Virus record (IMG/VR): IMGVR_UViG_2939147180_000003
DNA from: a virus
Taxonomy: Duplodnaviria; Heunggongvirae; Uroviricota; Caudoviricetes
Strand: one strand, 5' to 3'
DNA: 14,440 nt
This document shows positions 3,429-5,247 of this stretch, piece by piece. The stretch's first letter is position 1. Each line of letters begins with the position of its first letter. Both the position numbers and the translations under genes were made by a program. Under the pieces are notes generated by a model that was not told where the DNA came from, searched no databases, and was given only the letters and a program-made list of their open reading frames with translations.

Positions 3429-3724
3429 CTTTTGTTCTCCATCTGACGCTCTGCAACGCGTAAATTTAGGGTGCAGCAACCCAACCCATGAGAATGGGTG
3501 AATAGCTGGTTAAAATTTCTTGCTGATGGGGGACCGCCACTGCAATGGCGGTACGTTAGTTCTCCACACAACACAGAAGAGCACCTGCGGCCGCAAATCC
3601 GCTCGGGCGGATTGTGTTAGGGCACGTCACTCGGTGGTGCTCTGATGTCTTTTGTAAAAGGGCGAACCAGAAACAATGGGGAAACTGGTGCCGCCAAGAT
3701 GACATAGTCCATCAGACTCACTTG

Positions 3725-3768
3725 ATGTTAGGTTATGCCTAATGTCATGTCAATAGGCTTAGCCTAAT
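3725..3768 (-). promoter_or_regulatory. PL-like leftward promoter overlapped by two operator palindromes (OL-like)
   Basis: On the minus strand TTGACA (3753..3748), 17-nt spacer, TAACAT (3730..3725). Operator-like 17-mers GTTAGGT-TAT-GCCTAAT (3727-3743) and AATAGGC-TTA-GCCTAAT (3752-3768), centres 25 bp apart, related to the perfect palindrome at 5776-5792. Confidence 0.5.
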
Positions 3769-3782
3769 GTTGGTCGGCGGTC

Positions 3783-3806
3783 AAAAAAAATCCCGCATAA
3801 GCGGGA
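3783..3806 (-). terminator. Intrinsic terminator-like hairpin (reads as hairpin plus U-tract on the minus strand)
   Basis: Stem TCCCGC (3791-3796) / GCGGGA (3801-3806), loop ATAA, flanked by A8 at 3783-3790 (T8 on the minus strand). Sits between the IS5 left end and the PL-like promoter. Confidence 0.5.
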
Positions 3807-3826
3807 TTTGTGTGAAATAAAGCTAG

Positions 3827-5021
3827 GGAAGGTGCGAATAAGCAGGTCATTTCTTCCCAAGCTGACTCGCTGATTAAAATTTCGCGGATCTGGGCCGATT
3901 TTTTTCCCGCAAACACATCGAATCAGCCTATTTAGACCGTTTCTTCGCCATTTAAGGCGTTATCCCCAGTTTTTAGTGAGATCTCTCCCACTGACGTATC
4001 ATTTGGTCCACCCGAAACAGGTTGGCCAGGGTGAATAACATCGCCAGTTGGTTATCGTTTTTCAGCAGCCCCTTGTATCTGGCTTTCACGAAGCCGAACT
4101 GCCGCTTGATGATGCGAAACGGGTGCTCCACCCTGGCACGGATGCTGGCTTTCATGTATTCGATGTTGATGGCCGTTTTGTTCTTGCGCGGATGCTGCTT
4201 CAAGGTTTTTACCTTGCTGGGACGCTCGGCGATCAGCCAGTCCACATCCACCTCGGCCAGCTCCTCGCGCTGTGGCGCTCCTTGGTAGCCGGCATCGGCT
4301 GAGACAAATTGCTCCTCTCCATGAAGCAGATTACCCAGCTGATTGAGGTCATGCTCGTTGGCCGCGGTGGTGACTAGGCTGTGGGTCAGGCCACTCTTGG
4401 CATCGACACCAATGTGGGCCTTCATGCCAAAGTGCCACTGATTGCCTTTCTTGGTCTGATGCATCTCCGGATCGCGTTGCTGCTCTTTGTTCTTGGTAGA
4501 GCTGGGTGCCTCAATGATGGTGGCATCCACCAAAGTGCCTTGGGTCATCATGACGCCTGCTTCGGCCAGCCAGCGATTGATGGTCTTGAACAATTGACGG
4601 GCCAGTTGATGCTGCTCGAGCAGGTGGCGGAAATTCATGATGGTGGTGCGATCCGGCAGGGCGCTATCCAGGGATAATCGGGCAAACAGGCGCATGGAGG
4701 CGATTTCGTACAGGGCATCTTCCATGGCACCGTCGCTCAGGTTGTACCAATGCTGCATGCAGTGAATACGCAGCATGGTCTCCAGCGGATAGGGCCGTCG
4801 GCCATTGCCCGCCTTGGGATAAAACGGCTCGATGACAGCGGTTATATTCTGCCATGGCAGAATCTGCTCCATGCGGGAGAGGAAAATCTCTTTTCGGGTC
4901 TGACGGCGCTTAGTGCTGAATTCACTATCGGCGAAGGTGAGTTGATGGCTCATGATGTCCCTCTGGGATGCGCTCCGGATGAATATGATGATCTCATATC
5001 AGGAACTTGTTCGCACCTTCC
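3827..5021 (-). mobile_element. IS5-family insertion sequence (1195 bp)
   Basis: Terminal inverted repeats GGAAGGTGCGAATAAG (3827-3842) and CTTGTTCGCACCTTCC (5006-5021); internal transposase matches InsH. Flanking 4-bp CTAG (3823-3826) versus CTAA (5022-5025), a near-identical YTAR duplication. Confidence 0.9.
3973..4953 (-). CDS. insH: IS5 transposase (DDE, InsH-like)
   Basis: 326 aa, [36 protein letters not shown]... essentially identical to E. coli IS5 InsH as recalled. Confidence 0.95.
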
Positions 5022-5247
5022 CTAACATTTTTAACATGTTCAATGTGATTTTTAAGACGTACTTTGAAGTTTTCCATGCATCCTCCATGCAAAGTGAAAA
5101 CCTGCTGTTAAATCAAAGCAAGTCACAATCCCGGATAGGCTTCATACAAGCCAATCCCCCACAGGGATTGAGTTATGCAAGCGAATCAATCTCAGAGCTT
5201 TTAACATGTATGGAGCTTAGAGATATTGTCCGTTAGACCATATAAGC

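Follow-up and report, generated by a model that had tools for sequence, protein, structure and literature searches.

The ISKpn26 element and its flanks

The subject of this work is an insertion sequence (IS) in a 14,440-nt stretch of DNA from a Caudoviricetes virus record (IMGVR_UViG_2939147180_000003; the whole stretch is called here the window). The element has a racR-type repressor gene on one side and a leftward promoter region of the left operator/left promoter (OL/PL) type on the other. The initial annotation, which was made from the sequence alone, had put a 1195-bp IS5-family element in this interval. We found it at positions 3827-5021, with its transposase gene on the minus strand, and could identify it more closely, from its identity to RefSeq-annotated copies and from its inverted repeats, as ISKpn26, a member of the IS5 group of the IS5 family. 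The name was assigned with the RefSeq-annotated copies as reference: over the full 1195 bp the element is 100% identical to many copies on E. coli chromosomes and plasmids, which are labelled 'IS5-like element ISKpn26'. Comparison with IS5A of E. coli K-12 gave 1105 identical positions out of 1197 (92%), the divergence being concentrated at both ends of the element, and 320 identical amino acids (aa) out of 326 for the transposase.

The element is bounded by the terminal inverted repeats GGAAGGTGCGAATAAG (3827..3842, at the 3' end of the transposase gene) and CTTGTTCGCACCTTCC (5006..5021, at its 5' end), which are complementary at 15 of 16 positions. The intact gene between them (3973..4953, minus strand) codes for an IS5-family DDE transposase of 326 aa, which matches the Pfam families DDE_Tnp_1 (1.7e-35) and DUF772, and the NCBIfam equivalog transpos_IS5_4 with 366.8 bits (cutoff 140). 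The DDE transposase, the terminal repeats of about 16 bp, the length of about 1.2 kb and the near-identity to ISKpn26 all agree with membership in the IS5 family. The window copy shares with the usual ISKpn26/IS5 elements the length of 1195 bp, the 16-bp repeats GGAAGGTGCGAAYAAG, the single 326-aa DDE transposase and the YTAR target tetramers. It differs from them in its 92% identity to K-12 IS5 and in lacking the 4-bp direct duplication at a YTAR site, CTAG standing on one side and CTAA on the other. It must be noted that the duplication is the mark of a fresh insertion, not of the element itself.

The left flank, CTAG, occupies positions 3823..3826 and the right flank, CTAA, positions 5022..5025. 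The non-identity of the two tetramers had already been pointed out in the initial annotation, and we can confirm it. Direct reading of two independent E. coli assemblies (L002 and L013) gave the same pair, and the whole window is matched at about 100% by six E. coli assemblies, thus a sequencing error cannot account for the mismatch. E. coli KMi012 (CP147125.1) contains the window with 100% identity at positions 4676683-4691122, and the same allele occurs in five further E. coli chromosomes. Copies of ISKpn26 at other places served as controls: an identical copy in ybfC of the KMi012 genome is flanked by a perfect CTAA/CTAA duplication, and a plasmid copy by a perfect TTAG/TTAG duplication. 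Both CTAA and CTAG have been named as usual flanks of IS5 (PMC11677980). We also observed that the IS5A copy in CP4-6 of K-12 MG1655 (L014 956-2150) has unmatched flanks, TTAT and GGAG.

Comparison with IS-free relatives and origin of the flanks

Relatives of the locus were collected in two ways, by joining both flanks into a query for uninterrupted versions, and by searching for contigs that encode an identical RacR protein. A comparison with uninterrupted homologous prophages had been suggested in the initial annotation; when carried out, it showed that both tetramers are native sequences, which lie on the two sides of most of a gene for a 384-aa protein. This gene follows racR in Klebsiella phage KpF5 (L003), in nine contexts of the identical RacR protein (L004-L012), which are mostly on chromosomes of about 5.2 Mb, and in three E. 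coli genomes (L001, L015 and L016). It is intact in KpF5, in the nine contexts and in L015. The CTAG site reads ...GTGTGAAATAAAG CTAG tgtttttatgatt... in the relatives, and also ...AAATAAAG CTAG tgtttttatg... in L001, L003, L004, L006, L008-L011 and L015. The CTAA site reads ...gcagtgttct CTAA CATTTTTAACATG..., and also ...gtgttct CTAA CATTTTTAAC... in IS-free relatives. In the nine IS-free relatives where both sites were found, their starts are 1114 bp apart, and the two are collinear and in the same orientation. CTAG follows the stop codon of the 384-aa gene at a distance of 11 bp, and CTAA is within codons 18-19 of this gene. The two flanks of the element thus differ because they are the native target tetramers of two different sites.

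The extent of the missing DNA could be determined by comparison with E. coli S1-INA-02-B (L015). To the left of the site, 2800 of 2800 bp of this genome are identical to the window, and to the right the identity reaches as far as an IS3 insertion of L015's own. The stretch missing from the window corresponds to L015 5101-6210, which is 1110 bp. Of 5426 E. coli genomes, only three contain this segment, and the six that carry the IS allele are not among them, which argues that the segment was deleted and not moved. The direction of the change was loss and not gain, since the first 56 nt of the gene (5022-5077; 18 codons and 2 nt) and its terminator are still present in the window. The stub that remains (4994..5077, minus strand) reads into the end of the IS and forms an open reading frame (ORF) of 27 aa. 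ISKpn26 replaced 1110 bp by 1195 bp, a net gain of 85 bp, which leaves the distance from repressor to left operators almost as it was. The proposal of the initial annotation that the IS had separated the repressor gene from its left operators by 1.2 kb cannot be upheld, because a gene of 1155 bp had already been there.

The gene in question is directly downstream of racR in the relatives, and its 384-aa product matches Pfam HSDR_N and PHROG 4225 ('endonuclease'); in RefSeq it is labelled 'type I restriction endonuclease'. A search for a defence-system assignment with PADLOC gave no match for this protein. In the window allele the endonuclease gene is lost. Taken with the native tetramers and the absent segment, we are confident that ISKpn26 marks an IS-mediated deletion of 1110 bp in the prophage, and the transposase probably made both junctions, because both tetramers fit the IS5 target consensus.

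The minus strand would originally have carried, in this order, racR, the gene of the 384-aa HSDR_N-type endonuclease, its terminator, the PL-like promoter with two RacR operators, and the leftward genes; ISKpn26 now joins the CTAG behind the endonuclease stop codon to the CTAA near the beginning of the gene. IS5 moves mainly by a copy/paste mechanism (PMC11677980). Missing duplications usually arise by recombination between IS copies or by adjacent deletions, and the latter are common for IS903, a member of the IS5 family (PMC11708052). In the route that we favour, ISKpn26 would have inserted in the normal way at one of the two sites, then the same copy would have transposed intramolecularly into the other site. 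Such an adjacent deletion would release the intervening DNA as a circle, which would then be lost. Alternatively, two insertions in the same orientation could have been followed by homologous recombination between the copies. The two routes give an identical product. If the deletion was IS-mediated, adjacent deletion has a somewhat better than even chance of being the route, on the ground that it needs fewer events, and recombination between two copies is a serious possibility, with a chance of roughly one in three. The initial annotation had considered recombination between two IS5 copies; this idea survives as one of the two viable routes, as long as the partner was not a distant copy, the flanks being collinear in the ancestor.

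Deletions of this kind have precedents. For IS903, for IS150 in the long-term lines of Lenski, and for ISKpn26 in Klebsiella prophages, it has been described that the IS was kept, one flank remained unchanged, the neighbouring DNA was lost, and no duplication was present (PMC11708052, PMC6908951), which is the pattern seen in the window. The losses linked to ISKpn26 insertions in Klebsiella prophages were 10-32 kb (PMC6908951). The deletion in the window differs from these IS-associated deletions in being small (1110 bp) and in removing one gene almost exactly.

Some points speak against this interpretation. Neither a genome in which ISKpn26 occupies only one of the two sites nor one with two copies could be found, and four scans for the exact junctions in genome and metagenome contig collections were empty, a result that is uninformative because these collections hold few Klebsiella and E. 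coli strains. For single insertions, the queries were GTGCAGTGTTCTCTAAGGAAGGTGCGAA, for an element at the CTAA site, and TTCGCACCTTCCCTAGTGTTTTTATGATT, for one at the CTAG site. The left junction of an IS at the CTAA site would read ...GTGTTCTCTAA joined to GGAAGGTGCGAA, and the right junction of an IS at the CTAG site would read TTCGCACCTTCC joined to CTAGTGTTTTTATG. A third copy of ISKpn26, on a plasmid in a rearranged ISEcp1-CMY-2 context (L020), has the mismatched flanks TTAG and CTAA; such copies are not rare, and mismatched flanks in general are not rare for IS5/ISKpn26. It must also be said that we infer the order of the events and the sub-mechanism.

The simplest explanation for the mismatch would be an intergenic ISKpn26 insertion with the usual 4-bp duplication, one copy of which mutated later (G to A or A to G). 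The initial annotation had mentioned a point mutation, and CTAG and CTAA do differ at one base only. It is refuted by the relatives: CTAG and CTAA are both native there and 1114 bp apart, and in the IS-free sequences the DNA that follows CTAG (tgtttttatgatt...) and the DNA that precedes CTAA (...gcagtgttct) are unlike the DNA adjoining the IS in the window. We regard this explanation as having practically no chance of being correct. Homologous recombination with a distant IS copy, resulting in inversion or translocation, would also produce unequal flanks, and it would leave a second copy with the complementary flanks elsewhere in the genome, as the initial annotation had expected. The host genomes do offer partners, with ISKpn26/IS5-like elements at 4-6 places. 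Nevertheless, both flanks derive from the same prophage and were collinear, in the same orientation and 1.1 kb apart in the ancestor. With collinear flanks the reciprocal product would be a lost circle, and none of the genomes with the allele contains the intervening segment. The expectation of a second copy with complementary flanks is thus unsupported, and an exchange with a distant copy seems highly improbable to us.

A different kind of explanation is that illegitimate recombination or a double-strand break made the deletion, and that the break captured the IS without target cutting by the transposase. Such a model has been put forward for an element of the IS5 family in E. coli C, in a paper which reports that an IS and a deletion arose together in one step, with no duplication (PMC11708052). 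What this model would have to leave to chance is that both junctions in the window abut tetramers of the IS5 consensus, CTAG and CTAA. YTAR tetramers make up 1.7% of the positions in the ancestral segment, and the probability that two random junctions would both fall on such sites is about 3 in 10,000. Capture at a break is therefore quite improbable here, and an IS-mediated deletion remains by far our preferred interpretation.

The RacR immunity region and the leftward promoter

The repressor gene (5248..5724, minus strand, 158 aa) is of the racR type according to the NCBIfam equivalog TransRepsrRacR (254 bits, cutoff 200) and to the RefSeq annotation. The divergent gene on the plus strand (5826..6089; RefSeq coordinates from L002) codes for a YdaS/Cro-like helix-turn-helix protein, with a match to Pfam YdaS_toxin (3.7e-30). 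For RacR, the operator consensus WTAGGC-n3-GCCTAW has been published, with three sites (O3/O2/O1) between racR and ydaS, one of which spans the ATG of racR (PMC9638921). We found eight matches to this consensus, as compared to 1.76 expected by chance, and five matches with 0-2 mismatches cluster at 3728-3767 and 5717-5791. Three of these predicted operators are in the racR-ydaS spacer, at 5717-5731 (spanning the racR ATG), 5752-5766 and 5777-5791, exactly in the published O3/O2/O1 arrangement. The remaining two, at 3728-3742 (one mismatch) and 3753-3767 (perfect), belong to the leftward promoter.

This promoter (3725..3753, minus strand) is a sigma-70-like sequence with the -35 hexamer TTGACA (3753-3748), a 17-nt spacer and the -10 hexamer TAACAT (3730-3725), which agrees with the consensus at 10 of 12 positions; the two putative operators bracket the -35 and overlap the -10 sequence. 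A 41-nt unit containing two operators with the same spacing is repeated at 3728-3768 and 5752-5792 (73% identity). We noted that the left promoter resembles a stronger copy of the racR promoter region. The OL/PL-like label given in the initial annotation is supported by the two predicted sites at this promoter, which agree with the published RacR consensus, as do those in the racR-ydaS spacer. Between the promoter and a gene for a 99-aa protein there is a leader of about 290 nt (3429-3720, minus strand) with several GC-rich hairpins, which folds somewhat better than shuffled sequence (z -2.5). A search of the window with the RNA families of Rfam found only a tRNA-Ser, and the leader had no match.

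The arrangement is similar to the racR-ydaS switch of the Rac prophage in E. coli K-12, which has the RacR equivalog, the divergent YdaS-like gene and three WTAGGC-n3-GCCTAW operators, one of them over the racR ATG. It differs from Rac by the second operator pair, which lies on a leftward promoter 2 kb away, and the ancestral prophage of the window type would have differed from Rac also by the endonuclease gene just downstream of racR. In lambda, rexAB after cI holds the position equivalent to that of the endonuclease gene after racR.

An intrinsic terminator (3788..3809, minus strand; a 9-bp stem followed by a T run) is situated between the IS and the leftward promoter. It is conserved beside the intact endonuclease gene in the relatives, and would formerly have served this gene. 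The distances from the IS given in the initial annotation were largely correct: for the PL-like -35 hexamer, given as about 70 bp, we measured 73 bp, and the 27 bp to the hairpin is acceptable if counted to the centre of the loop (about 28 bp) but not if counted to the edge of the stem, which is 17 bp from the IS.

It is conceivable that the IS was retained for a regulatory effect, by activating or derepressing the leftward operon in the way in which IS5 acts at glpFK, flhDC and fucAO. This idea is compatible with the deletion, and the geometry would suit it. The element is in the activating orientation, in which the transposase promoter is at the end farther from the downstream promoter, and its end at 3827 is about 110 bp upstream of the predicted start site, known activating insertions being located between -99.5 and -169.5 (PMC2753651). 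The window thus resembles the cases of promoter activation by IS5 (glpFK, flhDC, fucAO and bgl) in orientation and in distance (about 100-170 bp). It does not resemble them in the terminal 177 bp, where activation depends on a site for integration host factor (IHF; TCAA-n4-TT) and an A-tract bend: the IHF core TCAA, which is needed for activation of glpFK (PMC2753651), is TCGA in the window, and there is divergence in the bend region, with only 73% identity to IS5 over the outer 100 bp at the PL-side end. Read-through of the type described for fucAO (PMC11894529) would be stopped by the intervening terminator at 3788-3809. Moreover, PL already has a consensus -35 hexamer and is bracketed by RacR operators, and the prophage is a remnant without lytic genes. 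Retention of the IS for its effect on transcription seems therefore unlikely, and the leftward operon is probably little affected, because the retained terminator would stop transcription leaving the IS towards PL.

On the other side of the element, the minus strand showed no terminator in the interval from racR to the transposase gene. For this reason, transcription leaving racR would enter the element and read its transposase gene in the sense direction, which may increase transposase expression. There is a parallel in K-12, where the nmpC promoter feeds the most active copy of IS5 (PMC11677980).

The remnant prophage and the fate of the endonuclease gene

The gene content of the window is that of a defective RacR-type lambdoid prophage, which is integrated at tRNA-Ser(CGA) beside mtfA in E. 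coli and has lost its replication, lysis and virion genes. The left end of the window consists of mtfA (1-837) and the gene of tRNA-Ser(CGA) (892-981), followed on the minus strand by an integrase gene, two small ORFs, a ParB-like gene and the gene of the 99-aa protein. On the right of the YdaS/Cro-like gene there are a YmfL/CII-like gene and a Dam methylase. Farther to the right, a chimeric ORF of 280 aa (7447-8289, plus strand) combines a RusA-like resolvase sequence (residues 1-63) with a C-terminal part of tail-fibre/glycine-rich type (residues 81-280). This ORF marks the joint of a large internal deletion in the prophage: complete prophages at the same site share similarity with the window up to a point near 7635, and the match for the right arm is the right end of a prophage in E. 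coli HS. The right arm also contains a direct repeat of 44 nt with 84% identity (12662-12705 and 13240-13283, 578 bp apart).

The element, the allele and the mechanism discussed here are all already known, and the kind of event is an ordinary one; public genomes contain the allele in annotated form, and it is textbook knowledge that IS-mediated deletions leave flanks which do not match. It is interesting to compare what happened at this locus in different strains. In each of the nine E. coli genomes with the remnant prophage, an IS event within the endonuclease gene or next to it destroys the gene or uncouples it, and the events are four independent ones. Six genomes have ISKpn26 together with the 1110-bp deletion; in the others, IS1A sits close to the 3' end of the gene, or IS1A sits in its middle, or IS3 occupies the spacer between racR and the endonuclease gene (L015). 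In the E. coli relatives without the window allele, these events are located at L001 4666-5433, L015 6360-7522 and L016 6060-6757. The gene is intact in phage KpF5 and in the nine other sampled contexts. In E. coli AB66 (L016 7934-9103), we observed in addition that ISEc52, an element of the IS3 family, interrupts the ydaS-like gene of the same immunity region.

It may be, and we put this forward tentatively, that an HSDR_N-type gene after racR is selected against once a prophage of the Klebsiella type resides in E. coli. A neutral explanation is at least as likely: the GC content of the endonuclease segment is 37%, and IS5 prefers AT-rich DNA (PMC11677980), so the segment could simply be a preferred IS target in a decaying prophage.

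For the annotation of the locus, the comparison with IS-free relatives means that the window is to be described as a defective RacR-type prophage from which an endonuclease gene has, very likely, been deleted by ISKpn26, and not as a prophage in which an IS split the repressor gene from its operators. As a general lesson, a one-base mismatch in the duplication flanking an IS can hide a deletion of the size of a gene, and such a loss is revealed by IS-free relatives. If the four IS hits do reflect selection, they could point to the cost of a repressor-linked nuclease in a new host.

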